A DNA stretch of 51,448 nucleotides from Escherichia phage BEK12B: the sequence record MN158215. One strand, 5' to 3'. The translations under genes and the position numbers were made by a program. Under the pieces are notes generated by a model. It was not told the DNA's origin. It did not search any database and was given only the letters and a program-made list of their open reading frames with translations. This document shows positions 4,181 to 28,737 of the stretch, piece by piece. The stretch's first letter is position 1. Every line of letters starts with the position of its first letter.

Positions 4181-4184
4181 TATA

Positions 4185-5496: not shown

Positions 5497-6254
5497 TGGT
5501 TTCTCCTTAACAGGCTTGCTACTGGTGCGCCGCCAAAATCAAGCTGCTGGTCTGCACCAAAACGAAGTTTACACGCGGTTACAGTTCCGGCGCAAAAGTC
5601 TTGAGATGGATCGGTTACAGGATTGTTGTCTTTATCGAACATTCGCGATCCATTATATCCGCAACCTTTTCCGCTTCGATACCATCCACGCTGCGCCCAA
5701 TAACAAACGCTTTGAGTTACTCGCGGAGGAATCATTATTCCATCCATATCATAAGGCGATGTCAGATCAAATTTTGCCATCATCCTATTGTAATGGCTTG
5801 GGCGCTCAATGTAATAAACCAGCTTTCTTGAAGCGCCATCTTTAATGCTGCCATCTTTCCCCATTAATTCTGCTGGCGTGATCCAGATTGTAACCTTAGC
5901 TTGCATCATGCCGTTAAAGTTGCGAATCATCGCGCTCACCTGGCTATCAAGGTTTGATAGTATCAATTGTGGCTTATCAGCCTTTCCGTTGCTTGTGAAG
6001 TTGATTCCAGATATTCCAAACGGTCGCGCGCCGTAAACCTCGCCACGGAATGTAATCTCTTTCGGCGGAAGAACTCCAGTTTCTCGCGCCTGCAATAATT
6101 CTTCCGCAGTGTATGAGATGTTCTCATTGTGTATGCGAAAAATGTTTGAACCGAATTTTGTACCGTCAATCTCAATTAGCGTGATAATATCGCCAGGGTA
6201 AAGGCTTTGCAGACAGTTTTCAAGATCTGCGCGACCTGTTGTTTCATTAGCCAT
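5493..6254 (-). CDS. minor tail protein (lambda L-like)
   Basis: position after M-like gene; C-terminal cysteine cluster; start chosen at MANETTG after RBS AAAGGAGG. Confidence 0.65.
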   Translation of the reverse strand: MANETTGRADLENCLQSLYPGDIITLIEIDGTKFGSNIFRIHNENISYTAEELLQARETGVLPPKEITFRGEVYGARPFGISGINFTSNGKADKPQLILSNLDSQVSAMIRNFNGMMQAKVTIWITPAELMGKDGSIKDGASRKLVYYIERPSHYNRMMAKFDLTSPYDMDGIMIPPRVTQSVCYWAQRGWYRSGKGCGYNGSRMFDKDNNPVTDPSQDFCAGTVTACKLRFGADQQLDFGGAPVASLLRRNQ

Positions 6255-6287
6255 AATTGCACCTCCTTTCGTGCATTGTATCATCAA

Positions 6288-6312
6288 TAAAAAAGCCGCA
6301 CAAAGGCGGCTT
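6288..6312 (-). terminator. hairpin plus T-run between M-like and L-like genes (possible attenuator)
   Basis: minus sense aagccgcctttgtgcggctt followed by TTTTTATT. Confidence 0.4.
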
Positions 6313-6315
6313 GAA

Positions 6316-6672
6316 TTATTGCATTGATGTAAATTGCTCAGTAAATGTTGCTTTCACTTCCTGAACGGTTGCTGATACAGGCGTTAATCCAATACTGCCG
6401 GATTTCACCCTGAATAGACCAGGTTGACCGTCAGGCATAAACCATAAAAACGGCTTCAGCCTGTGTCCATTCAGGAAGTCAACAACATCTCGGTAATCAT
6501 TACCCACATAGACAATGGAAAACTCCCTGCGTACCGTGTTAAACCCTCCTGATGCAACCTGCGTGTAACCATTACCAAATGATATTTCCCTGTCGTTATT
6601 TGATGTGGTCATAGTGCCGCCGCCTCCTTGCGTTTGCGTACACCATTTGAATTGCTCAAGTTTCACTATCAC
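6316..6672 (-). CDS. minor tail protein (lambda M-like)
   Basis: 118 aa ORF immediately after tape measure gene with ATGA-type overlap. Confidence 0.6.
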   Translation of the reverse strand: MIVKLEQFKWCTQTQGGGGTMTTSNNDREISFGNGYTQVASGGFNTVRREFSIVYVGNDYRDVVDFLNGHRLKPFLWFMPDGQPGLFRVKSGSIGLTPVSATVQEVKATFTEQFTSMQ

Positions 6673-9572: not shown

Positions 9573-9591
9573 TATTAATCCTCCTGGTAAT

Positions 9592-9613
9592 AAAAAAGCG
9601 CCCGTAGGCGCTT
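9592..9613 (-). terminator. hairpin plus T-run between GT chaperone and tape measure gene
   Basis: minus sense aagcgcctacgggcgctt followed by TTTTATT. Confidence 0.4.
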
Positions 9614-10237
9614 ATTTTGAATGCATCATTTCAAGTGCTTTTTGCTCCATGATTCGCAAGTCGTTTAGCGCCATCTCGCGATCCTCAACCTTGTAAATCT
9701 CAAAAAGCATCGGGAGAACGTTGTAATCAAATCCGTAAGCGCCACCGCCAGAACATCTCCATTGCGTTTGCATTGCGCAAAATATATCCCATGATTGCAT
9801 CATGCTTTCATCAAATATAACCTCTGGCGGATCTTCTCCTTCATAGTCTGCCCTTGTAAGCCCAACGGCCTCAAGCTCTGCGTCTGTCGGCGGTTTCTGA
9901 TAATACAGATAAACCGCCCGTTTTAGTTTTTTACGCGTTGCCCTGCCAGCGCGCTCAAATAAGATCCCATAAGAGCAAGCGCCGCGCCAGGATAATAATC
10001 AACTAACAGTTGCGCGTTTTCTTCGTTGAATTCTTCTTCCAGATCCCAACCCACGGCAACATTCATGATGAATTCAGGATCTTTAATACCTTCTTTCTGG
10101 TAAAGCTCTTGAATCTCGCTGGCCTTTTTATGCTTAACGGTAAACACAATTTTTTGCTCGTTACCATCCGGCAATACAAATTTAACTGGAAGTTTGAAAT
10201 CTGGAAGCGGGGCAAGAGTCAATTTCATTTTAGCCAT
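9612..10237 (-). CDS. tail assembly chaperone -1 frameshift fusion product (lambda GT-like)
   Basis: A_AAA_AAC heptamer (plus coords 9926..9932) immediately 5' of the G-like stop; -1 frame is open to 9612 and joins ORF 9612..9803 (translation ...KKLKRAVYLYYQKPP...MMQSWDIF...). Confidence 0.6.
9923..10237 (-). CDS. tail assembly chaperone (lambda G-like)
   Basis: 104-aa acidic ORF between major tail and tape measure genes; ends with slippery heptamer then stop. Confidence 0.65.
   Translation of the reverse strand: MAKMKLTLAPLPDFKLPVKFVLPDGNEQKIVFTVKHKKASEIQELYQKEGIKDPEFIMNVAVGWDLEEEFNEENAQLLVDYYPGAALALMGSYLSALAGQRVKN
9926..9932 (-). promoter_or_regulatory. programmed -1 ribosomal frameshift slippery site
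   Basis: minus-strand AAAAAAC directly before TAA stop of G-like ORF. Confidence 0.6.
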
Positions 10238-10284
10238 TGTCATTTCTCCTGAGTGGTTAAATATTGAGGTGATATTACATCAAA

Positions 10285-10310
10285 TAAAAAAGGGACGCAA
10301 TGCGCCCCTT
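10285..10310 (-). terminator. hairpin plus T-run after major tail protein gene
   Basis: minus sense aaaggggcgcattgcgtccc followed by TTTTTTATTT. Confidence 0.5.
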
Positions 10311-10314
10311 TAAA

Positions 10315-10977
10315 TTAAGCCTGAGTAGACGGCAAGAAAGTAAAGCGACCTTTCAGGGATACCGACAAAGAAACGGTTTCCATTTCGTTTACCGCCGTTT
10401 GTGGGATCTCGTTGAAAGAAAGCACACCAGCCCAAAGGCGCATTTCTTTTGCTTTTGGTACATACATGCGAAGCGCCTTTACTTCACCGGATTCGTCTGC
10501 TGCACGAAGTAACGGATAGATCGCGTTATCGTATTCGTGCGCAAAAGTGTAGGTCAGAGAAATGGCGCTCTTATAGGTAGGCAACTGCTGTTCCTGGTCG
10601 TCTGCCAAACACTGATAAGTATAGTATTGCTGTTCGCCGCCGTCCTGCGACAAATCCTGAACGCAAGGGATCTCAGTCCATGCATCAATCTTGGCAAAAG
10701 ATGCAGTTCCGCCAGTCGGGAACACGTTCTGATCTGTAGTATCAACACCCTCAAGAGTTACGCTTGTTTCTTCACCGTTAGCCTTTACACGCATAACACG
10801 ATCAATCAGCTTACCCCAGGAGGACGCAGTGATGATTACATAATCTCCTTTCTTGTACGCAGTGCCACCAGATGCAACGGTGAACACAGGATCTTTAGCG
10901 TTTGATACTGCCGTTGCTTGGATTTCGCTGCCGCGATTGCTCTCAACGAAAACTTGCGATCCATTTGGTAAATGCAT
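10315..10977 (-). CDS. major tail protein
   Basis: 220 aa ORF directly upstream of chaperone pair, strong RBS AAAGGAG, followed by terminator-like hairpin. Confidence 0.65.
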   Translation of the reverse strand: MHLPNGSQVFVESNRGSEIQATAVSNAKDPVFTVASGGTAYKKGDYVIITASSWGKLIDRVMRVKANGEETSVTLEGVDTTDQNVFPTGGTASFAKIDAWTEIPCVQDLSQDGGEQQYYTYQCLADDQEQQLPTYKSAISLTYTFAHEYDNAIYPLLRAADESGEVKALRMYVPKAKEMRLWAGVLSFNEIPQTAVNEMETVSLSVSLKGRFTFLPSTQA

Positions 10978-10982
10978 AATTT

Positions 10983-11384
10983 TTACTCCTTTGTTTCAAT
11001 TCGAACATAAAACCTTATTGGGAGAAGCCAGCCGCTTTCACTCTTGAGCGGCTTGTGAACTCTTGCACCCTCATATATATAACCATGCTCCAACATTTTA
11101 CCATCGTAAAAGAATTGCGCAATCTCTTTAGCGAGCACACGCGGCCTGTCAGTTCCGTAACCTGGTGGAAACACAATACCAACCTGAATCATTCCGATAT
11201 AAGAAACGCATTTGCGATCCAATGACAAGTATTCTGTGTCAACTTCGGCATAGTCAAACTTCAACCACGGCGAACCGTCACCAGGTGGCGTAAACTCTAC
11301 GTTTTCATAAGCGATCATGAATCTGCTTTCGTATTCAGTCGCCAGCGCCTTACGCGCCGATAGCATTAATTCATAGTGACTCAT
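10983..11384 (-). CDS. tail terminator-like protein (lambda U position)
   Basis: position immediately upstream of major tail gene; ORF-track start is TTG, ATG at 11384 with RBS ACGGAG preferred. Confidence 0.4.
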   Translation of the reverse strand: MSHYELMLSARKALATEYESRFMIAYENVEFTPPGDGSPWLKFDYAEVDTEYLSLDRKCVSYIGMIQVGIVFPPGYGTDRPRVLAKEIAQFFYDGKMLEHGYIYEGARVHKPLKSESGWLLPIRFYVRIETKE

Positions 11385-11880
11385 GTTGAACTCCGTGATT
11401 TTTGTGGTATCCAAAATTTAATTCTGCATCTTTTCTTGCTTTAGCAGCTTCATCAAAGCTAACAAAGAAACCTAAGTGCAACCTCTTTTTGTTGTGCATT
11501 ATTTGAGCGTACCATTTCTTGTTTTTTCGATGATAGTAAACACCGGTAACTCCGCTTGAGTTTCTTTTGTCGATTGTTTTGTTTCTCATGTTTCCAGATC
11601 TATCAACAATCCTTAGATTCTCAATTCTGTTGTCAGTTGTGTTGTGATTAATATGGTCAATCTCCATGCCGTCAGGAATTGGCCCGTTGTGCATCTCCCA
11701 AACTATGCGATGAACCCTAAACTGACCGCCAAACATATTAACAACAACGTATCCGCGATTATTTACATTTCCAGCTACGTCGCCAACAGAACAAGGATAC
11801 TTACATTTTGACTGATCTTTAATCTGAATCTTCCAGTAAATAAGTCCATCTTTGTATGTGAATATATCATCATAGTGCAT
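11371..11880 (-). CDS. HNH homing endonuclease
   Basis: EIDHINHNTTDNRIENLR HNH motif, N-terminal YKDGLIYW and C-terminal GYHKNHG as in the other HNH copies; inserted within structural operon. Confidence 0.85.
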   Translation of the reverse strand: MHYDDIFTYKDGLIYWKIQIKDQSKCKYPCSVGDVAGNVNNRGYVVVNMFGGQFRVHRIVWEMHNGPIPDGMEIDHINHNTTDNRIENLRIVDRSGNMRNKTIDKRNSSGVTGVYYHRKNKKWYAQIMHNKKRLHLGFFVSFDEAAKARKDAELNFGYHKNHGVQHESL

Positions 11881-12313
11881 TTTTAGCCCTCGACTCTTTT
11901 ATTGCTTCAGCCATATATGAACGCAATTTCACGGCAACAATACCAAGCACACCCGCTGGCGCTTGTTTTGAATGACCGTACTCAAGCGCGTTAGCATAAA
12001 TAAGCATGTTGGAAAAATAAATAGCTCTTACTGCGCCGCCACCTCGTAATATTGCGTATATGGCACGTTTTCCTTCCGCGATCGTTTTGTCTCCGTGCTT
12101 ATCGTACTGATTAAGCGCATACAATGGCGGCTTGTTTGCTGTTACCTGCCAGTTTGCACGATAACGACCAGTATCAACCGGAGAACGCTTAACCAAATCT
12201 GTGTGTACTTTTTCGGCGAACAACTCCACGCAATCTTTTAATCCACTATCAACGGCGTTTATCCACGCATCAATGTTGCCGTGAAATTCCCTTATCGTGT
12301 AGTTTTTAGCCAT
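11870..12313 (-). CDS. tail completion / neck protein (position-based)
   Basis: 147 aa ORF in head-tail joining region. Confidence 0.35.
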   Translation of the reverse strand: MAKNYTIREFHGNIDAWINAVDSGLKDCVELFAEKVHTDLVKRSPVDTGRYRANWQVTANKPPLYALNQYDKHGDKTIAEGKRAIYAILRGGGAVRAIYFSNMLIYANALEYGHSKQAPAGVLGIVAVKLRSYMAEAIKESRAKNAL

Positions 12314-12683
12314 GTACAGAAATCCTTCTCAAAATAGGCCGATAAGCAACAGTGACATTGGTTTGTCTGATTGGTCTTGCTTCAACTACAGCATATAATT
12401 CACCATCAACATCAATATGATACCCGTTCTTAATTTCAACTTTATTGTTAAAAACTCCCAACTTATCGGTTACTCGTATTGTTTCTCCGTCAACCTCGCG
12501 TACTTTTGGGGAGCGAATTAAACCCTTAATCATTACACTGATCTCTGGCTTTTCTACTTCTTCTCCTCCGATGATTTCAACGCTTCCACGCTGCGTTATG
12601 CACTTAAACTCACCGTTGCCATCACTAAAGAAGTTAATTCCTTCAGTTGCCATTCTTGCGATCTCGTTATAGTTCATTTGCAA
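12306..12683 (-). CDS. head-tail adaptor protein (position-based)
   Basis: 125 aa ORF in head-tail joining region, overlapping neighbours. Confidence 0.35.
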
Positions 12684-13090
12684 CGCCTCCTAAATCCAGT
12701 CACAAGACCAAATCCACCGCCTTTCTTACGATTTAGCGTTTCGTACATTTTCCCCCAGGGAGTTTGTCTAATATCTTTTCCGCCAGAGTCGCCTGACACT
12801 CGATCAAAGGTCTGGCTAAATTCACCAGTCAGGGAAAATGACGCAACTCGCCGCGAGTAACTTTCTACGCTTTCCCCTTCTTGCTTCATGGCTCCATCAA
12901 GCGTCATAAGGTGCAACGTATAAAGAGCAACCGCTTTAGGATATAACTCTTTAAACCGCTTCTTGCAAACAAATTCCTTTGCAAGCTCAATCCATGCCAC
13001 CATTAAATCTGGATCAATCTGCTTCATCGGTGGCGCTAATTTCACGATTTGCTGCGTGATTTCTGCGTCAGTGAAAAATTCATCAACCAT
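12674..13090 (-). CDS. head-tail connector protein (position-based)
   Basis: 138 aa ORF downstream of capsid gene. Confidence 0.35.
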
Positions 13091-13137
13091 TGTGTTTCCT
13101 CCAGATATGAAAGAGGGCGCTATAAGCGCCCTCTTTA

Positions 13138-13410
13138 TTAATAGATGCCGCCGTCTTCAAGTTCGGCTTTGCTCTTGCCCTCTCGCGGGTCTTTTTTACG
13201 TTTGCTTGCTGCGCTCTGTTTGATTTCTTCGTTCAATGCGGAGTTGTCTTTAACCTCCAGATCGCCTTTTGCAATTAGATATTCAAACGCGCTTGTTTTC
13301 AATTTTGATTCTTCTACGTCAAACTCTTTGCCTGGATGATAATGCTCACCATCAACAATGATAAGGCACACGCCGGAAACCTTTAGCGTTACAGTTTTTT
13401 CTTTAGCCAT
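13138..13410 (-). CDS. hypothetical protein
   Basis: 90 aa ORF after major capsid gene with RBS GGAGG. Confidence 0.4.
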
Positions 13411-13426
13411 TTCATAACCTCCAATA

Positions 13427-13454
13427 AAAAAGGGAATCCAGTTAAGGATTCCCC
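13427..13454 (-). terminator. hairpin plus T-run after major capsid gene
   Basis: minus sense ggggaatccttaactggattccc followed by TTTTTTT. Confidence 0.5.
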
Positions 13455-13466
13455 AATGCTATACGA

Positions 13467-14441
13467 TTAACTTGATTTTTTCAAGCCAGTAATAAGCACT
13501 AGCGTAAACGGACGGTAAATCGTCAGGCCAGTACATTTTGAAGTACACGGAACTTTGAAATGCAGATCTTTTGGTTGCGCCGGAAGCATGTTAAATGCTT
13601 CTGGAATTTCGATCGACATGTTCATCGGGTCTTTCTCATATACCAGGCAACCTTTCGTTCCAGTGCCATCAATATCCTCGAGTTCTGCGATTGAATCGAT
13701 GGTGATCCCGCTGTTTTGTTTCTGGAAGTATTCCAGATAACTTTCAGTGGTGTTTTCCATTCGAACGGAAAGAACCTTGCGCATAGACGGCGGAATCAGG
13801 ATATTGGTTGCGCGGTGCTGACCATTGGTAATGGTCTGAATGGTTTCAATAGCCTTTTCCAGCTCATCAGATGCCGCTTGAGGGAACTTAGTGTTTTCAT
13901 CATGACTTAACCAGCCAGAAGATGTAATCTTTGTCAGGTTAGGGTGTTCAAACACCGAAAGAATCTTATGCGGCTTTGAACCCTTAAACACCAGGCGGTT
14001 AACTTCCTGATCATGGGCGTTTTGCGCTGCGTTTGCCTTGCGAGTGGAAAGGCTCTTACCAGTACGCTGACCAGCCTTGATTTCGTCAATTGAGATCAAG
14101 AACGCGTTACCCAAGCGGAAAACTTTACCGAATTCGCTGGACATCAGCGCGTCAACGGTCGGCAGGTCGTCGGTGTAATCAGCGATAATTTTTGCGTAAC
14201 CAACCTTGTCGAACATCTGATATTCAAAAGTCTTATCAGTATCAGAAAGCTCATTAGTTACAGGGAATACACGAAGCGCAGAACCTGCCGGATATTCTTT
14301 CTCGTAAGCATCAGAGCGAATCTTATGCAGTTCTTTAGCGGCCCAAATACCCATATCGGACGCATCACCTTTAACGCCGCGAGTAGCCAGATAGCTAGAA
14401 ACAATATCCGCATCTAGCTGATCAAATTTTTCTTTTTCCAT
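13467..14441 (-). CDS. major capsid protein
   Basis: 324-aa ORF between decoration-like and connector genes; very strong RBS GGAGGAAG before ATG at 14441 (ORF-track start 14483 is GTG). Confidence 0.75.
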   Translation of the reverse strand: MEKEKFDQLDADIVSSYLATRGVKGDASDMGIWAAKELHKIRSDAYEKEYPAGSALRVFPVTNELSDTDKTFEYQMFDKVGYAKIIADYTDDLPTVDALMSSEFGKVFRLGNAFLISIDEIKAGQRTGKSLSTRKANAAQNAHDQEVNRLVFKGSKPHKILSVFEHPNLTKITSSGWLSHDENTKFPQAASDELEKAIETIQTITNGQHRATNILIPPSMRKVLSVRMENTTESYLEYFQKQNSGITIDSIAELEDIDGTGTKGCLVYEKDPMNMSIEIPEAFNMLPAQPKDLHFKVPCTSKCTGLTIYRPFTLVLITGLKKSS

Positions 14442-14487
14442 TTTCTTCCTCCATATATAAAGGTCGTTAGTATGTAACGCCACAATG

Positions 14488-14506
14488 ATAGCATTTTTTG
14501 TTAAAC
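14488..14506 (+). promoter_or_regulatory. inverted (antisense) copy of the conserved ATAGCA-TTTTTTGTTAAAC element
   Basis: plus strand ATAGCATTTTTTGTTAAAC followed by CATAAT; lies between minus-strand decoration and capsid genes. Confidence 0.4.
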
Positions 14507-14524
14507 GTGCAACATAATTTTGTG

Positions 14525-14971
14525 TTATGCGTTAATGCTTACCCCGACAATATATGAATCATGATCAACCTTTACATGTTCACCAGTAAAGATCCAACCA
14601 ATCAGCAAGTCGCCTTCACTGTATGCCGCATCTCCATCTTGCGTTACAAATACTTTATCTCCATATTCTGGCGCTTCTCTCTCAGAAGTTAAGCACCACA
14701 CACTACCTCTACTAACCACATTAACGGGATCACCCTCCTCATATATGCACGAGTCCAGCGGCCTTACTGCCACGCCAATAACGAGATCCCCATTAATACT
14801 GGCTATTTTGTATCCATTTGTTATATGTGATAGTCGAACAATCTTACCTGGCGCAATAAATTCATCTCCGCACACGAAAGAACCGTTAATCACCATTATT
14901 GAAGAATCGACCATGCACCCTTGCGACTCAGCGCCAACAATGACTGAATAATCACTCATGAGAAACTCCAA
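14525..14971 (-). CDS. head decoration-like protein, paralog 2
   Basis: 148 aa; shares GVAV...G.VW.L....AP..G segment with ORF 15006..15518. Confidence 0.45.
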   Translation of the reverse strand: MEFLMSDYSVIVGAESQGCMVDSSIMVINGSFVCGDEFIAPGKIVRLSHITNGYKIASINGDLVIGVAVRPLDSCIYEEGDPVNVVSRGSVWCLTSEREAPEYGDKVFVTQDGDAAYSEGDLLIGWIFTGEHVKVDHDSYIVGVSINA

Positions 14972-14975
14972 ATAT

Positions 14976-14998
14976 AAAAAAGGCGCTCAGTGAGCGCC
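14976..14998 (-). terminator. hairpin plus T-run between the two decoration-like genes
   Basis: minus sense ggcgctcactgagcgcc followed by TTTTTTAT. Confidence 0.45.
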
Positions 14999-15005
14999 AT
15001 ATTTA

Positions 15006-15518
15006 TTAACCTGCTGAAGATGCCGGAACTTTTTGCACCTGAACCTCTACCAGCTTCAAGTCTTGAAACTTGGTGAAATCACCAGTCGCGATCCATTTTG
15101 TTTCGATAGTGCCAGACCCGGTATCAACCTGACCATCCTCAGACAGTTTGATTGTAGTGCCGAACGCTGGCGCGGTGGCGTCTTTAGCCAACATCCAAAC
15201 ACGCCCTTCAGTCATTACGTTGATTCCGCCGCCAGATTCATAAATCATTCGACCGTCAGACGCAGTTGTCTGAAAGTGAGAACGAATTGCAACGCCGTAA
15301 GCCTTGCCGCTTGCCGCCATCGGCTTAATTAGCTTATTGCCCATAGCGTCAACGCCGCCATGCTGGACTGCCACACCAACAAAAATGTTTTTGTTCTGGT
15401 TTCCTGCTGCATTCTCAAGAACACAAGCGCCATCAATATTATAAGCTGAAGTGTCAGAAACCTGACCAGGTAACGCGCGAGACATTACATCAAAATAACT
15501 TGCTCCAATTGTAGCCAT
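15006..15518 (-). CDS. head decoration-like protein, paralog 1
   Basis: 170 aa; similarity to ORF 14525..14971; located after scaffold-like gene. Confidence 0.45.
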   Translation of the reverse strand: MATIGASYFDVMSRALPGQVSDTSAYNIDGACVLENAAGNQNKNIFVGVAVQHGGVDAMGNKLIKPMAASGKAYGVAIRSHFQTTASDGRMIYESGGGINVMTEGRVWMLAKDATAPAFGTTIKLSEDGQVDTGSGTIETKWIATGDFTKFQDLKLVEVQVQKVPASSAG

Positions 15519-15530
15519 GTTTATTTCTCC

Positions 15531-16643
15531 TTATTTAAGTTTTTTCAAACGCGCAGTCGGATCAAGGGAGTCGGTTTTTTCACTCTTGCCAGATTCGAAA
15601 GAATCGCCCTTAACAGATTTACGCTGCGCCGCCATTTTATCAGACTGCTTCGCAAGGTCAAAAGCTGTTTCAATATATGCATCTGCTTTTTCTGAAATAT
15701 CAGCGCCAGTGACTTCTTTGACGTAAGCAACCTTGATCGCTTTATCGTCCAAGCCGTCACACTTGATGCCAATTTCAGTTGCATCTGCAACCAGCTTGGC
15801 GTGTTCTTCTGCATCAGTCTTTGCCTTCTTAACAGCTTCTGCAATCTGCACCGGAATGCCATCGACTTTAGTTTTCAGGGCGTCGCGCTCGGCCTCAAGG
15901 CCATCAGCTTTTTCGGTTGCAGCTTTTGCATCTGCCTTTAACGCCTCAATATGATCAGCAACGGCCTTTGGAACATCAAATTCTACCGCGCCATCAAGTT
16001 TAATTTTTACTGTCATTTCCTCATCTCCTTTGTCATTTAGAACCTCGTCACTATACGGAAAATCCTGCTCACTATCAAGATTTAATTTGGCAATGCCAGC
16101 ACGACCACGAAAGACAAGTGCAATGTGATTAACACGGATATTCGTCTGAATGGCGTCAAATTTAACCCAATCAGGAGAATCAGGCTTCCAGTCTTCCTTG
16201 AGGTCTTCCTCAAACAAGTAATCACCAGTTTTATTATTACCCCAGCCTGGCTTGTCAATATCAACCGATGTGTAACCAACTGAAATTTCCGCCGTGTCTT
16301 TCTTTTTTGCACTCTCAATTGCTCGCTTTGAGTAAATACTTAACGGAACTTCAACGCCAATCCCATTTGGAACACCAGCGCCAGCGCATGAACCAACAAC
16401 AACCTGATCCGCATTATCTGGCGTCACTGTGACGTGACCGATAGTGATCGGCTTACCTGCGAAAGTAGCAAGGGAATCAGCCTTGAACACCTCGGACGCT
16501 GGACGGAACTCTCGTCTGATTCCATACGGTGTGTGATACTCCTGCAAGCCAATTCGCGCCACAATTGGGCGATCAACTAAAAAACCATTATCATCAAAAT
16601 GCGCCTTAACCTGGACGCTATCAAATCTTTGTTTTGCCTTCAT
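15531..16643 (-). CDS. scaffolding / prohead maturation protein
   Basis: 370 aa; C-terminal Ala/Lys/Asp/Glu-rich coiled-coil typical of scaffolds; position between head morphogenesis and capsid genes. Confidence 0.5.
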   Translation of the reverse strand: MKAKQRFDSVQVKAHFDDNGFLVDRPIVARIGLQEYHTPYGIRREFRPASEVFKADSLATFAGKPITIGHVTVTPDNADQVVVGSCAGAGVPNGIGVEVPLSIYSKRAIESAKKKDTAEISVGYTSVDIDKPGWGNNKTGDYLFEEDLKEDWKPDSPDWVKFDAIQTNIRVNHIALVFRGRAGIAKLNLDSEQDFPYSDEVLNDKGDEEMTVKIKLDGAVEFDVPKAVADHIEALKADAKAATEKADGLEAERDALKTKVDGIPVQIAEAVKKAKTDAEEHAKLVADATEIGIKCDGLDDKAIKVAYVKEVTGADISEKADAYIETAFDLAKQSDKMAAQRKSVKGDSFESGKSEKTDSLDPTARLKKLK

Positions 16644-16646
16644 TAA

Positions 16647-17411
16647 TTACTCTCCTTTACTATTCCAATCTGGAATCGCCCAGCAACGGCAACCCCACGG
16701 CTCACCAGGGAAATCATGAATTGCATCAAGAGCTATTCTTTTACCTTCCCATAACACATGCTGCAAGCGCTCTCTATCATCCAACATTCCATGCCAGAAA
16801 TAATGAGTTACCTTAGCATCATAAAGGCGCTGGCGCATCAGGCGACTATTCCACGCGCCGATAATGTTTTCTGATCTCGTTTTACCCCAGGAGCTATAAA
16901 CAGCAAATCTCTTTTCTGCAAGATCATTAACCTGTTTATCATTGCTTCCGCGAAAGTTTGCATTGCGAATGTTTGTTGACCAGTCAGACACAATATTTGT
17001 GAACAACTTCTTTAGCGATGATTCTGTAAGTCCGTGCCATTGCCCGTAAAGCGTCTGATACCACTCCTCGTTAGCGTTAGCGCCAACCGCGATCAAAACA
17101 ATTACCGCCGTGTTATCATTTCCGCCAGTTGACTTTGCAACATTTATGAACTGCTTCGCATTGAATTTATAGATGGTCAACGCGATTGCAGGAAGAGTTG
17201 AAATAATGCCAGCTATAAGGTCAGTTGCCAGGCTGTTAATTTCATCTTCTGCGCTGTTAATCTCATTATCTGCTGCGTCAAACTTCATCGCTTTTGTACG
17301 CTTGCGCATGAGAACTACCAGATCCCTAATTGCCTCCTGAATTGAGCGGCTAAATTGCCGCTCGCTTGCTTCAGGAAAGCGCCATTGTTTAACGACGCCA
17401 TTCACTTTCAT
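16647..17411 (-). CDS. head morphogenesis / minor capsid protein
   Basis: 254 aa ORF directly after portal with overlapping stop/start. Confidence 0.5.
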   Translation of the reverse strand: MKVNGVVKQWRFPEASERQFSRSIQEAIRDLVVLMRKRTKAMKFDAADNEINSAEDEINSLATDLIAGIISTLPAIALTIYKFNAKQFINVAKSTGGNDNTAVIVLIAVGANANEEWYQTLYGQWHGLTESSLKKLFTNIVSDWSTNIRNANFRGSNDKQVNDLAEKRFAVYSSWGKTRSENIIGAWNSRLMRQRLYDAKVTHYFWHGMLDDRERLQHVLWEGKRIALDAIHDFPGEPWGCRCWAIPDWNSKGE

Positions 17412-18691
17412 TACTCATTCCCCTGTGTGCCTGGCTCCGGCTCCGATGGCTCCGGCAGCTTGATTTTATTAGTGTCCTTTAGTTTAACGCTTGGGGCGAT
17501 TGCTCGCAACGTGTCGCGCGCTTCTTCAACATCAAGGAACTGACCATCAATAGCCTTGCTGATTGAGTCGATATTCTTATTCAGAATTTCAGCCTGATCT
17601 TTATCGCTAGGTACGCTCAAAGGTGAAAACTCAATGCTCCACTCCTGCTCACTAATGATGAACGGCAATAGAAATTCAAGGATAGGCTTGTAATCCTCGA
17701 CGCGTTTTCGTTCAATCAGCTTATAGAATGTTTCAAGCGCCGTGTTTTGGCTTGCGCTAACGCCGCCAACGTTTTTGTTTTTCAGGATGATTTCATGAAT
17801 ACCTGAAAGGGAAACGATGCGATCCATTTTCTTTTCCAAGAAAGAATCAACGCCGCTGATGTCAGAATTAAGAACATCATATTCCTCATCCTCAGCATCA
17901 ATACCAATTGCTTTTCCAACACCGCCATCGTCGTCAACCTGCGCAAGTCTCAGGCGTGCCGCGCTAACACCTTCCTCATCATCGCACAAGTCAGCAAGTC
18001 CTTTAGCCTTCCATACAGCCTGCTGTTTCCTCCGCAATAATTGCGTTGCCAATGTTTCACAATAGTTATAATCAACAATAGCCTCAACAAGTCGCTTATT
18101 CAGAACTGACTCACCCCAGCCATCATTGCTGCGTCGCTTTGCGTTAGGTATCCGCTCACCGTCGATAATGCAAACTCGCGTGTAGTGTACCTGGTATTCC
18201 GGCAAGTCTCCGCCTGGCGTTACAGTGTAAAGCACTGGCTCACCATAGCGAACCTTGCGGGGATTAGTTTCGCGCGCCTCAACGCGAATCTGATAACGAT
18301 CGTAAACGCGAACATCTTCCAGCATGGCCCCAGGCTTTACAGGTGATTTGAGCGCCCGCCCATCCTGAACAAGAGCAATGATTGCAGATCCGCCAAACAA
18401 ACGCGACCAGCAAAGCGCATCAATAATTTTTGCATTCAATCGCTTTTCATCCCACAAAGAACGGAATGCCGCCTCGTCTGCCACTCCGTCAACAGTGAAG
18501 CCAGGGGAAACCATTTCCTCTGGCACTACGTCAATAATCCTTTTTGCTAGTCCGTCTTTTTCGTAAAAGTCAGCAAGTGTCTTGTATGGCATTGATTGCA
18601 TGTAGAATGGTTGCTCTACTCGCGATTTGCAATTCTCGCCTTTAAAGATCTCGTTATAGCCGTCAGTCTTAACGATTCGTGATTTACTCAT
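17411..18691 (-). CDS. portal protein
   Basis: 426 aa ORF directly downstream of terminase large subunit; acidic C-terminus. Confidence 0.75.
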   Translation of the reverse strand: MSKSRIVKTDGYNEIFKGENCKSRVEQPFYMQSMPYKTLADFYEKDGLAKRIIDVVPEEMVSPGFTVDGVADEAAFRSLWDEKRLNAKIIDALCWSRLFGGSAIIALVQDGRALKSPVKPGAMLEDVRVYDRYQIRVEARETNPRKVRYGEPVLYTVTPGGDLPEYQVHYTRVCIIDGERIPNAKRRSNDGWGESVLNKRLVEAIVDYNYCETLATQLLRRKQQAVWKAKGLADLCDDEEGVSAARLRLAQVDDDGGVGKAIGIDAEDEEYDVLNSDISGVDSFLEKKMDRIVSLSGIHEIILKNKNVGGVSASQNTALETFYKLIERKRVEDYKPILEFLLPFIISEQEWSIEFSPLSVPSDKDQAEILNKNIDSISKAIDGQFLDVEEARDTLRAIAPSVKLKDTNKIKLPEPSEPEPGTQGNE

Positions 18692-18706
18692 TATCTTTCC
18701 TCCAAT

Positions 18707-18731
18707 AAAAAAGGCTGGATTTACCAGCCTT
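18707..18731 (-). terminator. hairpin plus T-run between terminase and portal genes
   Basis: minus sense aaaggctggtaaatccagcctt followed by TTTTTATT. Confidence 0.4.
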
Positions 18732-18741
18732 TGATTATATA

Positions 18742-18765
18742 TTGGTTTGTCGATTCGTGCTATTT
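18742..18765 (-). promoter_or_regulatory. diverged copy of conserved element (AAATAGCACGAATCGACAAACC) followed by TATATAAT
   Basis: terminase stop TAG embedded in ATAGCAC; -10-like TATATAAT downstream in sense. Confidence 0.45.
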
Positions 18766-20328
18766 CTTGATTCCAGCGAGGCGGTACATTCTTCCAACCG
18801 GATCATCTGCCATGTTCATTTCAATGTTAACCGCATCAATCAATGTGTCAACAATATCATCGTGTGGCGCTGAATCATCATAAGCAAAAGCCGCAACCTC
18901 CGCAAGTATCTCAGCCAGCATAGGATGCGATTCTGGAAGTGCTACGCGTCCTGCGCGCATTACTGGCGCTGCGTCCATTGCACGAGTAACCTTGTCTTTA
19001 TCACGCTGAACGGGATTGATCTTGATCATGATTTTTTTCGCTGCACTCTGAATCAAACCAGTGCCAGACGATTTATCTTCAACATGAATCCTTCGCAATG
19101 TTCCGCATTCTTTATTGCGCTTCCAACACTGATTCACGAATGCAACAAAATTCGTCTCAAGGTCCGGTGCTTCCCATTTTCCGCGAACGCCATCAATGAA
19201 GTAAACGCGATCTTTATACATCCCCCAATAACAGATCACGGAGTAGTCGTTAAGCTCCCCTGTTTTCTGTGCGGTATCAACCGTGATAAATGTATATTCA
19301 AAGCGATCCGGTTTTGGTAGCGTGCATTTCTCGCTGCTGCCGTAATACTGAAACCACTCTGTTTTAAACACGTTACCGCCAAGCGCAACAGGCTGTTGCT
19401 GATACTGACTAGCGAACGTGTACGGATCAGCATTTCGAAGCGCAAGTAATTCATCCGCGCTTTCCTTAGCAGGCCAGAACGAATAATGAGCAACACCATC
19501 AATCATCACTGGCTTACTGGACAAAACATCGCGATCAAACTCAGGCTTTAACCAATCAGGAAGCGTTTCGCGATATTCCTTAGTAACGAGCGCCGGAATA
19601 CTAACCACCTTAAACTTGATGCCGCCCATGCCGCCGTTTGTCATGAACCATGTTGAATCATTGACGTGTAGGCGTTGCTGAACCATCACAATTGGCGTGG
19701 TGTCCTTCATTCTACGCGATCGAACCGTGTTCTTTAGGCGCATGTGTCCGGCTTCGCGCTTTGTTTTTGATAGTTGATCATCAGGCTTATCTGGGTCGTC
19801 AAGAACCAGCATACCAGTAAAACCATCATCCATGTAACCGCCACGCAAACCAGTTACCTGACCACCAATAGATCGCGAATTTAGTTGCAACCAGACCTTT
19901 CCATCTCCATTAAGTACAGCTATATCTTTCGCGCTTGCTTTTGCCATCTTGCAAGGCCATAGCTCTTGCCATTCTGGAGAACCGATAATCTCCCTTACTC
20001 TAATGCTGTTTTGCTGCACAAGGCCATCACTAAACGAAAGGTTTAGATTTCGCACCTTCTTGCTTTTCAGCATTGCGTAAACTGGCATGTGGATCGAGAA
20101 TATTTCCGTTTTTGACGAACCAGGAGCAACGTTGAAAATCACGTTCTGCTCCTTGCCACTAATCACATCTTCAAGGTATCGGCATATATATGATAAATGC
20201 CAATTACCTAAAAACTTTTGCCCCTGTAGCAAGTTAAACCAAATGCGGATCATTTTTTCGAATGAGTGAGCGCTCATTTCTTTAATGGCGCGTTTCTGCG
20301 CCGCTGTTAAGTCTTCCCAAATCAGCAT
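18760..20328 (-). CDS. terminase large subunit
   Basis: 522 aa; ATPase-like N-terminus (VLDDPDKPDD Walker B-like) and nuclease-like C-terminus; follows small subunit. Confidence 0.85.
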   Translation of the reverse strand: MLIWEDLTAAQKRAIKEMSAHSFEKMIRIWFNLLQGQKFLGNWHLSYICRYLEDVISGKEQNVIFNVAPGSSKTEIFSIHMPVYAMLKSKKVRNLNLSFSDGLVQQNSIRVREIIGSPEWQELWPCKMAKASAKDIAVLNGDGKVWLQLNSRSIGGQVTGLRGGYMDDGFTGMLVLDDPDKPDDQLSKTKREAGHMRLKNTVRSRRMKDTTPIVMVQQRLHVNDSTWFMTNGGMGGIKFKVVSIPALVTKEYRETLPDWLKPEFDRDVLSSKPVMIDGVAHYSFWPAKESADELLALRNADPYTFASQYQQQPVALGGNVFKTEWFQYYGSSEKCTLPKPDRFEYTFITVDTAQKTGELNDYSVICYWGMYKDRVYFIDGVRGKWEAPDLETNFVAFVNQCWKRNKECGTLRRIHVEDKSSGTGLIQSAAKKIMIKINPVQRDKDKVTRAMDAAPVMRAGRVALPESHPMLAEILAEVAAFAYDDSAPHDDIVDTLIDAVNIEMNMADDPVGRMYRLAGIKK

Positions 20329-24140: not shown

Positions 24141-24163
24141 GCTTTTAGCAATTCGTGCTATTT
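24141..24163 (-). promoter_or_regulatory. conserved element, GAATTG variant (AAATAGCACGAATTGCTAAAAGC) plus TATAAT
   Basis: kinase stop TAG embedded; TATAAT 22 nt downstream of TTGCTA in sense. Confidence 0.55.
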
Positions 24164-24763
24164 GATCTTAATGTGTTTCCACTGGACCGTTTTGATGATC
24201 TCGTCAATAGTCTTTTCTGGATCGCCATCAATCATTGTGAAGTCGTAATGTTTTACTCGGTGATGGTATCCGTTCAGGTCAATATAGTTTCGTGAATCGC
24301 CATCAAACGTGAAGCCTTCGCGATGCAGTCTGCAAATGTGAACTTCATGGCCTGCCTTAACTAGCGGCTTGATTTCTTCAGGGAATCCGCCATCACTAAT
24401 TACAACAGCTAAATCTCCGTACATCTCGTGTACTTGCTCAACCATGCGATTTCCGAAATATTGCTCGCCAAAAGCTGGCTTCATAACTTCTTCGCTAATC
24501 CAGATCATGAACTGGCGAGGCGACTTGCCTTGCAAGATTGCTTGAGGCTTTTCTTTCTGCTCGCGGTCATTATACAGATCAATGAACTCGTCATATCGGT
24601 AAACACCAAGCATGGAAAACGCAATATCAAACATAGGCTGTTTAAACGACGCTTCAACGGCTGCGTAACGATGGCCCGTTAAGTATGCCGCAAGCGTATC
24701 TTTTCCAACCCCTGGCGGTCCGTTAAGGATGATAATGTCGCGCTTCATATTAGTTGTCTCCAT
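24158..24763 (-). CDS. P-loop nucleotide/polynucleotide kinase
   Basis: Walker A NGPPGVGKDT near N-terminus; VVISD segment resembling kinase domain of T4 Pnk. Confidence 0.6.
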   Translation of the reverse strand: METTNMKRDIIILNGPPGVGKDTLAAYLTGHRYAAVEASFKQPMFDIAFSMLGVYRYDEFIDLYNDREQKEKPQAILQGKSPRQFMIWISEEVMKPAFGEQYFGNRMVEQVHEMYGDLAVVISDGGFPEEIKPLVKAGHEVHICRLHREGFTFDGDSRNYIDLNGYHHRVKHYDFTMIDGDPEKTIDEIIKTVQWKHIKIK

Positions 24764-24942
24764 ATCTGCTTGAATGTTTGCCTGGTCGCTTGCGCTTATT
24801 GCGATAGCGTTGATTCATCTCTTGGTGCTCGTAGTAGCTGTATCGCTTCTTCTTGGATACGATTTTTTCGACGCTTCGCATCTTCATAATCTCCTGTTGT
24901 TATCTCAATATAGCGCACTGCATGAATGCGCTATAGCAAGAA

Positions 24943-25128
24943 TCACCACTTAAAGCCGCTTTCATCCAGTACAATCTGGTAAAGCGCCACCCAAAACCAC
25001 ACAAACCAGAACACCAGAACAAGAGGCTGATCTTTATCAGTGCAATCACACACTTTAACCAATGCGCGGAAGATGAATAATCCTGAAATATAAAAGAAAA
25101 TAACTAAAAATACAAGTGCATAGATCAT
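24943..25128 (-). CDS. small membrane protein
   Basis: 61 aa, two hydrophobic helices. Confidence 0.35.
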   Translation of the reverse strand: MIYALVFLVIFFYISGLFIFRALVKVCDCTDKDQPLVLVFWFVWFWVALYQIVLDESGFKW

Positions 25129-25388
25129 TTGTTTTCCCCTTCAATTACCAGAGTGTAAAGCAGAACAGGCTCTACCATGTCGCGGCGGCGTGGATCTCGT
25201 GGCGAATCGGGCCATGTGCATTTCCCGTTTGACACAATATGGCCTACCAGGTTACTAAGTTTTGAGATTCCATCACGACGGATAACATTGTAACCAATGT
25301 CCTTTCCGTCAATAGAATGTATAGCAAAGAAGCTAGGCGTGCCGTCGATAATGTCTACAGCTTTAAAAAACTCGATCTTGTTAGCCAT
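25125..25388 (-). CDS. hypothetical protein
   Basis: 87 aa ORF. Confidence 0.4.
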   Translation of the reverse strand: MANKIEFFKAVDIIDGTPSFFAIHSIDGKDIGYNVIRRDGISKLSNLVGHIVSNGKCTWPDSPRDPRRRDMVEPVLLYTLVIEGENK

Positions 25389-25442
25389 GATTTAATCCTC
25401 GTTTGTTGTTGATGGGCTTACTATACAGCAAGCCCGATGATC

Positions 25443-25466
25443 TGTTTTTTGCAATTCGTGCTATTT
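25443..25466 (-). promoter_or_regulatory. conserved element, GAATTG variant, plus TATAGT inside hairpin
   Basis: AAATAGCACGAATTGCAAAAAACA in sense; stop TAG of ORF 25461..25670 embedded. Confidence 0.5.
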
Positions 25467-25670
25467 GGTGAACGTTGCGAGCGTTTGACCAGACATTGAC
25501 CTGATAAACAATCTTCCGCCGTTCTCCTTGATGTGCATATCCACGCCAGTTTTAGGAGACTTGACAACTAATACGCCTTTTTCGTTTATCCTGGCGTTGA
25601 CCATCGCGCCAACCTTAAAGCCGAATATATTGCGGCCGCGAGGGTTAGCATATGCTACATTCAGGATCAT
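25461..25670 (-). CDS. hypothetical protein
   Basis: 69 aa ORF. Confidence 0.4.
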   Translation of the reverse strand: MILNVAYANPRGRNIFGFKVGAMVNARINEKGVLVVKSPKTGVDMHIKENGGRLFIRSMSGQTLATFTK

Positions 25671-26224
25671 TTCTGCAACTCCTCCACGCCATGCGATTGG
25701 ATATGATTATGTGGCTTGTCGTATTCCGTGACCTGATAGGTTGTGATTCCCAGGCTTCGGAAGTGCTTAACCACGTTCGGCGAATCATCAAAAGCGCACA
25801 CAATGTTTTCCAGTCCGATAGCGCGCAAGACTTCTTCTTTGATGATTGTGTCTTTGCGGTTGTCTTCCTTGCGGCGCATGATTAACGCATCGTACTTGAT
25901 GCTGTTTTCGTTAAGCCATTTGCAGGTGTCCTCCATCACTTCATCGCTACGTCCGGTCAGGATAACGATGGCAAATCCCGACATCCACAAACCGTTAACC
26001 ACTGCAACCGTGCTCTTAATCGGCGAATCGCCAACAGCCGCCTTATTGAACTCAGACCAGCTTTCTGTAAGGTGCAAATCTTCTGTCGGAAGCAGGTGCA
26101 AGCGATGCGTTCCGTCTGATAACGTTCCGTCCAGGTCAACGATAACAATCGGCTTGCTCGTGGAAAAATGGTATTTGCTGCCCCAAAGTTCAAATTCGTA
26201 TTTTTTCATTATCAAACCTATCAA
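25667..26224 (-). CDS. HAD-family phosphatase resembling T4 polynucleotide kinase 3'-phosphatase domain
   Basis: motif I VIVDLDGTL; later segments ILTGRSDE, RRKEDNRKDTIIKEEV and FDDSPNVV match the T4 Pnk phosphatase domain as recalled. Confidence 0.7.
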   Translation of the reverse strand: MIGLIMKKYEFELWGSKYHFSTSKPIVIVDLDGTLSDGTHRLHLLPTEDLHLTESWSEFNKAAVGDSPIKSTVAVVNGLWMSGFAIVILTGRSDEVMEDTCKWLNENSIKYDALIMRRKEDNRKDTIIKEEVLRAIGLENIVCAFDDSPNVVKHFRSLGITTYQVTEYDKPHNHIQSHGVEELQK

Positions 26225-26659: not shown

Positions 26660-26711
26660 CTTTTGTCTCCTTCGTTGAAAGTAGGGCCATTATACATGGC
26701 CCCACATTTGA

Positions 26712-26732
26712 GTTTTAACAATTCGTGCTATT
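26712..26732 (-). promoter_or_regulatory. conserved element, GAATTG variant (AATAGCACGAATTGTTAAAAC)
   Basis: sense-oriented copy downstream of ORF 26792..27682. Confidence 0.5.
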
Positions 26733-26791: not shown

Positions 26792-27682
26792 TCATACTTT
26801 GACCTTCCACTTAACCATAGTTCCGCGCTTGATGCTGATCTCACCTGCAACAGTCCGGTTTTTAGCTCCGCAGTAGTGAAGAAGGAGGATAACAACGTCA
26901 TCATGAATTTCGATCGTCTTTGGCTTAGCCGTTAATTCATACCAGGTGCCGTCATCAAGCTGAACCCCTTTTAACGTGGCGGCAACTGGCATGTCTTCAA
27001 TTGCTCCCTGCGTTACTATTTCTTGATAGGCAATTTCGCTCTTATCAATACGCCAGCTTCCAGGCGCTTTCATTTCAGCGGCTTCCTTGTGGATCTCCTC
27101 GCCAATGATTTTTTGAATTGACGTCTTCCCGCCGCCGAATGGTGTTTCCCCAAACAAGTGTTTTGTAATATCTTCCACGTAGTACACCTTATCTTTTTCG
27201 TTGTGCGGATTTAATTTGTTATGACCATCAACAAAAAAATCAACTTTAAAACCTGATTTCAGGCCATCACTATAAACGCCGTTGTCTGGTGACGTATAGC
27301 GAATCGTTGAATAATCAACAGTGCGGAATACGATCGGATACTTAATGTTATCCACGTTTAAGCACCACAATTTTTTGTAGTCGCAGGTTTTCATATCTAC
27401 CGTATGAATCTCTTCGCGTTCCGGCGAGCGCACTGGTAACACCTGGCCTTCATATGGTTTGTAGTGCAAACAAGTGTAGCCTGGCATTGCGTAACCGTAG
27501 TCTCTGAGTGAGTTGTAGTGTTTATTGTGCGCTTCAATGAAGTGTTCAATCTCCATTGTTGAAGCGTTTGTACTTCCGTCTTCGTTAAACTTAGTGCATG
27601 TCTTCTCGTCGGTAAACATGAAATGACCAATGTAGCGAGATTCGAAGGTGATCGGGAATTTAATGTCAGCAAGTTTTAACAT
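26792..27682 (-). CDS. hypothetical protein (296 aa)
   Basis: long ORF with good coding appearance; no motif confidently recognised. Confidence 0.5.
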   Translation of the reverse strand: MLKLADIKFPITFESRYIGHFMFTDEKTCTKFNEDGSTNASTMEIEHFIEAHNKHYNSLRDYGYAMPGYTCLHYKPYEGQVLPVRSPEREEIHTVDMKTCDYKKLWCLNVDNIKYPIVFRTVDYSTIRYTSPDNGVYSDGLKSGFKVDFFVDGHNKLNPHNEKDKVYYVEDITKHLFGETPFGGGKTSIQKIIGEEIHKEAAEMKAPGSWRIDKSEIAYQEIVTQGAIEDMPVAATLKGVQLDDGTWYELTAKPKTIEIHDDVVILLLHYCGAKNRTVAGEISIKRGTMVKWKVKV

Positions 27683-27782: not shown

Positions 27783-28034
27783 CCGGTCAGTGAAAGTAAC
27801 GCTAAAGCTATCCCTGTGATTTACTAGGATTCTGATAGCTTTCATCATATCCTCGGAAGATGCCGGATACGTTTTTTGCCACTCTCCAGAAGAAAGCACG
27901 GCATCGTGAATCATCAAGTCCCTAGCCGTGTCCAGTATTTTTTCCACATCCTCTTTCGTGTACTTCTTGCCACCAAGCGCACTAACAACTTGTTTTGCGG
28001 CTTTATCAATATCAATCTTATTCATCGTCGCCAA
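27777..28034 (-). CDS. hypothetical protein
   Basis: 85 aa ORF. Confidence 0.45.
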   Translation of the reverse strand: MATMNKIDIDKAAKQVVSALGGKKYTKEDVEKILDTARDLMIHDAVLSSGEWQKTYPASSEDMMKAIRILVNHRDSFSVTFTDRK

Positions 28035-28536
28035 CCTTCTTAATCATGCCATCAATAATTTCATGGAATCGCTCACCCATAATGAGCGCCCCAGCCAGCT
28101 TATCACCTTCAAGATCTGACACGCGAGGCATCACGCTAGCCAGGTGCTTAAGCGCTTTATTAACAGCCTTAGCAGTTCTCTCGCTTACAATGGCGTTAAT
28201 TTCATCGCCAGTCAGCACGCGAGGTTTGCTCTCTTTCTCTGCAAGTGAGAACACATAGCAGCATCCACCACTACCAGTTTTGCGCTTAATGCTTGTCACT
28301 CCGCGCTTTTTGATTTCCGGCACACGATTCATAATTCCGCGCATGTATGATGCTGTAATTTCGTGACCATCCTCGACGTTGGCGTGTATATACAGGATCG
28401 GCATTGACACTTCGTCACGTTCACCGCTGCCAATCTTCTGCGCAACCTCGCGCAGCATGTTACAGAACTCCTTGCGCGTCATGCGTGGCGCTTCGTCTTC
28501 GCTTTCGTCAATCATTTCAAGATCGTCGTTAATCAT
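28018..28536 (-). CDS. hypothetical protein, first gene of the early minus-strand block
   Basis: ORF 28018..28629; internal ATG at 28536 has RBS GGGAG at good spacing, so shorter start preferred. Confidence 0.45.
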   Translation of the reverse strand: MINDDLEMIDESEDEAPRMTRKEFCNMLREVAQKIGSGERDEVSMPILYIHANVEDGHEITASYMRGIMNRVPEIKKRGVTSIKRKTGSGGCCYVFSLAEKESKPRVLTGDEINAIVSERTAKAVNKALKHLASVMPRVSDLEGDKLAGALIMGERFHEIIDGMIKKVGDDE

Positions 28537-28737
28537 TGAATTTTCTCCCGTATTGGTTGCGCTTAGATGTGGCGCATTATGACCATGCAGCCTGGTGGTG
28601 TCAATATGTTTTCTCTGTTTTGGCTGCATTTTTTATCAAAATGCTGTTGCCTGATAACAAATGACACAGCTTAAGTCATTGTTTTAACTTGAAAATATTG
28701 GCTTGTTTAGCTGGTTGACGGAGGATTGCCACTCCCC

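Follow-up and report, generated by a model that had tools for sequence, protein, structure and literature searches.

A linked HAD phosphatase and deoxynucleoside monophosphate kinase in Escherichia phage BEK12B: a possible deoxynucleotide-salvage module

Escherichia phage BEK12B (sequence record MN158215) has the genome of a T1-like siphovirus, placed in the Drexlerviridae, Tempevirinae, genus Hanrivervirus. The whole 51,448-nucleotide stretch was analysed and is called the window here. Two genes on its minus strand are the subject of this study: one encodes a P-loop kinase and the other, lying upstream, a HAD phosphatase. An earlier, sequence-only reading took them to be the split halves of an end-healing enzyme like the polynucleotide kinase-phosphatase (Pnkp) of phage T4, which might repair tRNA cut by host nucleases. 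Instead, the kinase belongs with deoxynucleoside monophosphate (dNMP) kinases (DNKs), and the pair is best explained as a deoxynucleotide-salvage module of virulent phages and not as RNA end healing, a reading to which a probability of about 0.5 is assigned.

Identity of the two enzymes

The kinase matches phrog_139, "deoxynucleoside monophosphate kinase", with an E-value of 7e-51; no Pfam model scored above threshold and a sequence search of the PDB returned P-loop noise only. A fold search assigned it the fold of dNMP kinases, and its P-loop contains GKDT. Alignment of its family to T4 PseT, the T4 Pnkp, is limited to a 25-column stretch at the P-loop, whereas the alignment to T4 gp1 and T5 Dnk extends beyond that stretch, and the family is related to T5 Dnk. 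The sequence similarity to these two enzymes (gp1, 1DEK) is remote and the window kinase is shorter, lacking the gp1 insertion. The substrate sites were compared using the residues listed for 1DEK (Table 2 of PMC10653934). Here, the gp1 ligands R68 and R132, which contact the acceptor phosphate, together with D175, E181 and R197, are kept as R67, R83, D124, E130 and R148 of the window kinase. The equivalent of the acceptor-site lysine, K37, is shifted by one helical turn in the window family, and gp1 R177, also present in T5 Dnk, is replaced by an invariant glycine in the motif DGGF (kinase residues 124–127, about 24383..24394, minus strand), where T4 gp1 and T5 Dnk carry D-x-R. In gp1, R177 is a ligand of both the phosphate and the base of the dNMP, and the P. 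putida protein PP_1964 retains the arginine as R200 (Table 2 of PMC10653934).

Near-direct experimental support comes from assayed relatives. Phage dNMP kinases trigger the KomABC defence, Kongming, by helping to make dITP (bioRxiv 10.1101/2024.12.20.629578). In that study, purified R1DNK (gp58 of phage Rao1) was efficient on dAMP, dGMP and dCMP and also acted on dTMP, and the DNKs of KarlJaspers, VAC2, T5 and XZ1 triggered toxicity; in its supplement, the KarlJaspers DNK is listed as QXV82329.1 and the sequence of R1DNK is provided. With QXV82329.1, the window kinase has 95% identity (190/201 residues), and with R1DNK 47% (E 2e-58); DGGF is present in all three. As R1DNK has DGGF and is nonetheless an active dNMP kinase, the acceptor must be bound differently in this family. 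The DNKs of Rao1, KarlJaspers and VAC2 belong to the same protein family as the window kinase and have in common with it an NGPPGxGKDT P-loop and the motifs SFKxPMF, RxFMIWISE, DGGF and GDSRxY. Judged by these relatives, the window protein is a dNMP kinase and not a Pnk-type end-healing enzyme. For the kinase, this grouping is the very outcome that the sequence-only reading had named as contrary to itself.

The HAD protein matches the Pfam family HAD_PNKP (PF25109) at 80.1 bits (cut-off 27.6), with residues 26–167 covering profile positions 3–140 of 143, a score that far exceeds those it obtains on acid-phosphatase or generic HAD models. It also matches phrog_415 (E 4e-66), and its sequence search of the PDB returned Pnkp1 (4XRP) and the phosphatase domain of T4 Pnkp. 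Its AlphaFold (AF2) model has a mean predicted local distance difference test score of 72 and a well-predicted core. The best Foldseek matches of this model are to the phosphatase domain of T4 Pnkp and to Pnkp1; the top entries are 5uj0, 4xru, 2ia5, 1rpz and 1ltq, with a probability of 1.00 and TM-scores of approximately 0.52–0.55 when normalised to the query, which has two low-confidence segments, and of up to 0.70 when normalised to the 143-residue target 5uj0. Among viral structures, the best matches are phosphatase-only relatives, followed by classical Pnkps of 300 amino acids (aa). Consistent with this, the profile-profile comparison (hhalign) of the HAD family with T4 PseT reached a probability of 97.3% (E 2.6e-11) over 132 columns.

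The active site was mapped onto T4 PseT with MAFFT, using the residues reported as essential in the mutagenesis literature on T4 Pnkp. All ten positions are conserved in the HAD protein: D30, D32, T34, R41 and T90 align with T4 D165, D167, T169, R176 and S211, and R92, D125, K129, D146 and D147 with T4 R213, D254, K258, D277 and D278. The HAD fold and the DxDGT motif are common to the window protein, T4 Pnkp (PDB 1LTQ, 2IA5, 5UJ0) and Capnocytophaga Pnkp1 (4XRP). The window protein differs from PseT in that its polypeptide has no kinase domain and its genome no ligase partner; the identity is approximately 29%, and an insert of approximately 15 residues follows motif I that is absent in T4. 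On profile, alignment and model, the HAD protein is thus a phosphatase-only member of the Pnkp phosphatase family. Here, the sequence-only reading, which had noted a likeness to the phosphatase domain of T4 polynucleotide kinase, is borne out by profile, fold and active-site residues alike.

The C-terminus of the HAD protein varies among relatives (P0123, P0127, P0132 and P0147; L042 9384-9995 and L047 2152-2760). Many relatives have a longer form (236–237 aa) with an extra C-terminal domain of approximately 55 aa, and some of these have an added Cys-rich insert (CEGEHC...CLRC); the window encodes the short form. The versions of Erwinia podophages carry a different Cys-rich tail. These C-terminal tails could be substrate- or partner-binding modules. 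A 69-aa open reading frame (ORF) downstream of the HAD gene was considered as the split-off C-terminus of the long form and was ruled out, being unrelated. A scan of genome contigs for the HAD subfamily found no relative, which is a weak negative because the search was pattern-based.

Linkage and fusion of the two genes

The neighbourhoods of both genes were sampled in viral genomes, with 80 loci retrieved with the kinase and 80 retrieved with the HAD protein. When the HAD protein was the anchor, the kinase gene was found downstream, on the same strand and within about 2.1 kb, in every locus (80/80), with gaps between the two stop-to-stop ORFs of -108 to 2058 nt. When the kinase was the anchor, a window-type HAD gene was present in 37 of the 80 loci, always upstream and on the same strand; in the remaining 43, representing 31 lineages, none was found within 10 kb. 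The pair overlaps in Aeromonas phage ZPAH7B (Autographiviridae), and adjoins in T7-like podophages of Erwinia and Pantoea and in the Braunvirinae phages Rao1 and SU57, the spacing in SU57 being 2 nt. In Rao1, the window-type HAD gene (gp57) lies beside its DNK. The two genes are a conserved, non-random module, with the order HAD then kinase, across phage families. Thus, what the sequence-only reading called a pair is genuinely linked, and it is the split end-healing function that is improbable.

The coupling extends to fusion. Three protein clusters (P0257, P0387 and P0264) combine an N-terminal HAD_PNKP domain with a C-terminal kinase of the window family, and P0257 is present on three contigs, one of which is a 60.8-kb phage-like contig. 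On that contig, P0257 (L007 8001-9212) adjoins genes for a PAPS-reductase-like protein and a Dam methylase. The linkers of P0257 and P0264 (L009 498-1883) are approximately 60–100 aa in length and have a common GPELHG motif. Other fusion partners were sought among longer kinase homologues; only HAD_PNKP recurred, the remaining extensions being disordered tails or probable start-site artefacts.

In the lineages without a HAD gene, the commonest immediate neighbour of the DNK gene is the gene for an ATP-dependent DNA ligase (L039 10573-11520, L004 4259-5020), with ligase domains in 6–9 of the 75 neighbour ORFs of the 31 lineages and a dUTPase gene sometimes following. Genes for ligase, dUTPase, dCTP-deaminase-like proteins, endonuclease VII and exonuclease occur in these neighbourhoods, a setting of general replication and nucleotide metabolism. 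The adjoining ligase was considered as evidence for end sealing and set aside as non-discriminating, since genes for dUTPase, dCTP-deaminase-like proteins and exonuclease are found there too.

Deoxynucleotide salvage and the competing explanations

In the proposed salvage module, the HAD protein would be a Mg-dependent phosphomonoesterase from the clade of the T4 Pnkp 3'-phosphatase and, more distantly, of T5 Dmp. The kinase would convert 5'-dNMPs to deoxynucleoside diphosphates (dNDPs), which NDK, the nucleoside diphosphate kinase of the host, would convert to triphosphates (dNTPs). Both genes would be read leftward, probably by the host RNA polymerase from sigma-70-type promoters. We infer that the phosphatase clears phosphates which block or misplace deoxynucleotide breakdown products, its likeliest targets being 3'-phosphates on DNA fragments, 3'-dNMPs or 3',5'-bisphosphates. 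The products, 5'-dNMPs or ends accessible to exonucleases, would then pass to the DNK and into the dNTP pool. The setting is a phage without genes for DNA polymerase or nucleotide synthesis, which would depend on the host polymerase and on recycled host DNA. Its relatives T1 and TLS are reported to break down the DNA of the host and to use the nucleotides again (PMC11447400). Earlier work on Drexlerviridae has noted a pair of "PNK" and dNMP kinase as a source of nucleotides (PMC13164509, PMC11447400), and the KanT1 paper takes this gene pair for nucleotide supply (PMC13164509).

A split end-healing pair, with the kinase acting on 5'-OH ends and the HAD protein on 3'-phosphates to repair tRNA or other nucleic acid cut by host defence nucleases, is highly improbable. 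It draws on the combination of a Pnkp-type phosphatase with a P-loop kinase and on the HAD-then-kinase order of the fusions, which resemble the architecture of mammalian PNKP. The HAD_PNKP domain is elsewhere paired with genuine Pnk (AAA_33) kinases, HAD-less DNKs often abut DNA ligase, and the loss of the arginine equivalent to gp1 R177 can be added on the same side. Against this stand the dNMP-kinase fold with its conserved acceptor-phosphate arginines, the activity of orthologues as dNMP kinases both in vitro and in vivo, and the limitation of the likeness to T4 Pnk to the P-loop, with no Pnk-type (AAA_33-like) 5'-kinase domain.

The partners that such a system would call for are also missing. 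ARAGORN found no tRNA genes in the window, and phmmer searches of it with T4 DNA ligase, Rnl1, Rnl2 and the kinase domain of T4 Pnk gave no match. Among ORFs of at least 190 aa, no ligase was found when the non-structural ones were compared with Pfam. Those in the leftward block 526..20328 were taken as structural or packaging genes, the major capsid protein by profile scan and the remainder by synteny with an annotated relative; Pfam identified two helicases, a primase, Dam, Erf, a PDDEXK exonuclease and a tail-fibre protein among the others, and the rest are function-unknown proteins without a ligase-domain match. The annotation of the well-annotated relative JakobBernoulli contains no ligase. 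The sequence-only reading had found a ligase partner "not obvious", which these searches strengthen to absent. Among jumbo phages, the occurrence of end-healing enzymes generally follows that of RNA ligases (PMC7824862), a pattern of healing plus ligation that is absent in the window genome, which has no other RNA-repair gene either. With no tRNA genes, T4-type ligases, Pnk-type kinase or ligase among the large ORFs, an RNA-repair module was rejected, and the suggested anti-defence role in tRNA repair is unlikely.

T5 Dmp raises a different alternative. This protein is a 5'-deoxynucleotidase that shields T5 from Kongming by depleting dAMP, and Dmps co-occur with DNKs (bioRxiv 10.1101/2024.12.20.629578). 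A Dmp-like HAD protein would act as a 5'-deoxynucleotidase that trims particular dNMPs (deaminated, unwanted, or dAMP) and would stay beside the DNK to balance pools or to blunt DNK-sensing immunity such as the dITP signalling of Kongming. T5 Dmp is not an HD-domain enzyme but a HAD enzyme with a DLDGT motif, in which D22 is the first Asp (T5 dmp, L175 124-858). phrog_415 holds the window HAD protein, Rao1 gp57, T5 Dmp and VPG01 Dmp, whereas T4 PseT falls in phrog_505. T5 Dmp has motif I, an HR motif and the insert after motif I in common with the window protein, and T5 likewise carries a DNK. With hhalign, the window HAD family matched the Dmps at 91.8% (E 7.5e-7) over 141 columns, which take in the insert that T4 Pnkp lacks; Dmp and T4 reached 54% only.

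The likeness is nonetheless distant, with 20% identity to T5 Dmp and an HMMER E-value of approximately 0.005. The HAD family scored 48.7 bits with HMMER against the T4 phosphatase domain and approximately 17 bits against the Dmps, a match that is weak in both directions (E ~0.005–0.06). It is nearer T4 than Dmp in motifs II–IV and overall, and its motif III region, RKDxxxKEE, is T4-like. No Dmp could be identified among the named entries of the top 50 viral structural matches. T5 Dmp itself has 244 aa with a C-terminal extension and matches nothing in Pfam, and its gene is part of the pre-early region, at a distance of 21 kb from dnk. By these comparisons, the HAD family sits between the T4 Pnkp 3'-phosphatase and the T5 Dmp 5'-deoxynucleotidase. 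Phage Rao1 has the window-type HAD gene, yet it is sensitive to Kongming, its dAMP increases 2–3 fold in infection and it needs T5 Dmp in trans for rescue (bioRxiv 10.1101/2024.12.20.629578). These data argue against a broad Dmp-like activity of the HAD protein. An emulation of the homologue search with HMMER suggests that the Kongming authors did not count the window-type HAD protein as a Dmp homologue. Overall, a Dmp-like role is unlikely, if less so than end healing.

The two genes could also have independent functions, the HAD protein alone removing 3'-phosphates from nicks or breaks in DNA or RNA that host enzymes then seal, the DNK supplying dNTPs, and their proximity reflecting only a common early-operon ancestry. 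The four unrelated small coding sequences (CDSs) that separate the genes in the window fit this account, as do the absence of the HAD gene from about half of the DNK-bearing lineages and an active site that is fully like that of T4 Pnkp. It is made rather improbable by a gene order that is the same in siphoviruses and in T7-like podoviruses which otherwise share little, by the retention of the kinase in every HAD-anchored locus, by the overlap and close spacing seen in ZPAH7B and SU57, and by the existence of fusion proteins.

Several points weigh against deoxynucleotide salvage as well. The window HAD protein and T5 Dmp have an insert in common at the cap position (HR...FN-A...D-PIQD) and belong to one PHROG; therefore, the HAD protein could act on 5'-dNMPs and oppose the kinase instead of feeding it. 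No nuclease is known to generate DNA with 3'-phosphates during T1-like infection, which makes the origin of the proposed substrate hypothetical. The AF2 model is of low confidence at residues 33–67 and 167–185. A single virus family supplies much of the synteny evidence, and the fusions, which are rare, probably stem from a single old event because their linkers have the GPELHG motif in common. Finally, Rao1 from which dnk was deleted showed no apparent loss of fitness under laboratory conditions (bioRxiv 10.1101/2024.12.20.629578), and therefore the salvage role may be dispensable.

A further, tentative proposal is that a Pnkp-family HAD phosphatase has been diverted from end healing to an obligate partnership with a dNMP kinase, as either a relay or a safeguard. 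As a relay, the two enzymes would convert 3'-phosphorylated deoxynucleotide debris, such as 3',5'-bisphosphates and 3'-phosphate ends, to dNDPs. As a safeguard, the phosphatase would remove a by-product that lets hosts detect the activity of a DNK, as in Kongming-like immunity.

The locus, its annotation and significance

The ORFs named by the sequence-only reading (24158..24763 and 25667..26224) exist on the minus strand, and both of its motifs, VIVDLDGTL and GPPGVGKDT, are real (Table 1). They are not chance occurrences, as both proteins match family profiles strongly (Pfam and PHROG for the HAD protein, PHROG for the kinase). For both genes, the true starts are likely to be internal ATG codons because the gene models of the BEK7 depositors, the N-termini of homologues and the upstream sequence agree; the kinase ATG has a GGAG Shine-Dalgarno sequence eight bases upstream. 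Small ORFs do lie between the two genes, as had been stated, but their number in the BEK7 annotation is four (43, 61, 87 and 69 aa) and not three. From comparison with relatives, these are lineage-specific insertions between the HAD and kinase genes; such small genes vary by genus and are absent in lineages with an adjoining pair. The 61-aa ORF has two hydrophobic segments.

Table 1. Positions of the genes, motifs and predicted promoters in the window
Feature	Position	Strand	Remarks
dNMP kinase (DNK)	24158..24748	-	196 aa from ATG; mechanical ORF to 24763, 201 aa
Kinase P-loop GPPGVGKDT	24695..24721	-	From translation; K21, D22, T23 align with gp1 K14, D15, T16
HAD phosphatase-only protein, Pnkp phosphatase family	25667..26209	-	180 aa
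HAD mechanical ORF	to 26224	-	TTG start, 185 aa
HAD motif I DLDGT	26123..26137	-	Asp30 nucleophile and Asp32 (ORF numbering); align with T4 Pnkp D165, D167
Four small CDSs between the kinase and HAD genes	24750..24881, 24943..25128, 25125..25388, 25461..25670	-	Mapped from the BEK7 annotation
Sigma-70-like promoter	28576..28604	-	Predicted; TTGACA, 17-nt spacer, CATAAT; 11/12 consensus matches
Second promoter-like site	26689..26718	-	Predicted; 10/12 consensus matches; ~0.5 kb upstream of the HAD gene

The kinase and HAD genes lie in a leftward block that is headed by the stronger promoter-like site and whose first gene starts at 28536, and the label "early genes" given to them before is plausible. 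This first gene, which together with the promoter-like site lies within 28018..28604 (minus strand), encodes a DUF7174 protein. The sign of the GC skew flips near 29–30 kb, which suggests a point of divergent early transcription. The gene at 26792..27682 (minus strand) encodes a protein of 296 aa that contains an internal repeat (IKFPITF... / IKYPIVF...); the protein matches phrog_7116, of unknown function, has no Pfam match, and in relatives is conserved immediately upstream of the HAD sub-block. Over 23500-27000, the window shows 100% identity to Escherichia phages BEK7, BEK1-23 and BEC3 and approximately 90–93% to many relatives. The window is 417 nt longer than the BEK7 record (51,031 nt), with which it was compared over the same region, and a terminal direct repeat was sought in the window and none was found.

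Deposited and annotated records of both genes already exist, and the family of the kinase has been characterised. However, the label "polynucleotide kinase" that GenBank and PHROG 415 give to the HAD protein is, for a phosphatase-only protein, a misnomer. The PHROG 415 label spreads into many GenBank phage records, although the PHROG includes T5 Dmp, a 5'-deoxynucleotidase. The present assignment corrects a widespread misannotation: hundreds of phage records call the HAD protein a polynucleotide kinase, while its neighbour, the actual kinase, often goes under "hypothetical", "ATPase" or "ATP-binding protein".

For T1-like phages, no RNA-repair system is added. The compact module offers a handle on how these phages, without polymerase and nucleotide-synthesis genes, recycle host DNA. 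What remains of interest is the tight, occasionally fused coupling of phosphatase and kinase and its possible bearing on immunity that senses DNKs. The kinase is a known trigger of Kongming, and its constant phosphatase neighbour is an obvious candidate for a modulator of nucleotide pools or of Kongming immunity. If true, the relay or the safeguard would give this phosphatase family a new physiological role and would explain both the linkage of the genes and their occasional fusion.

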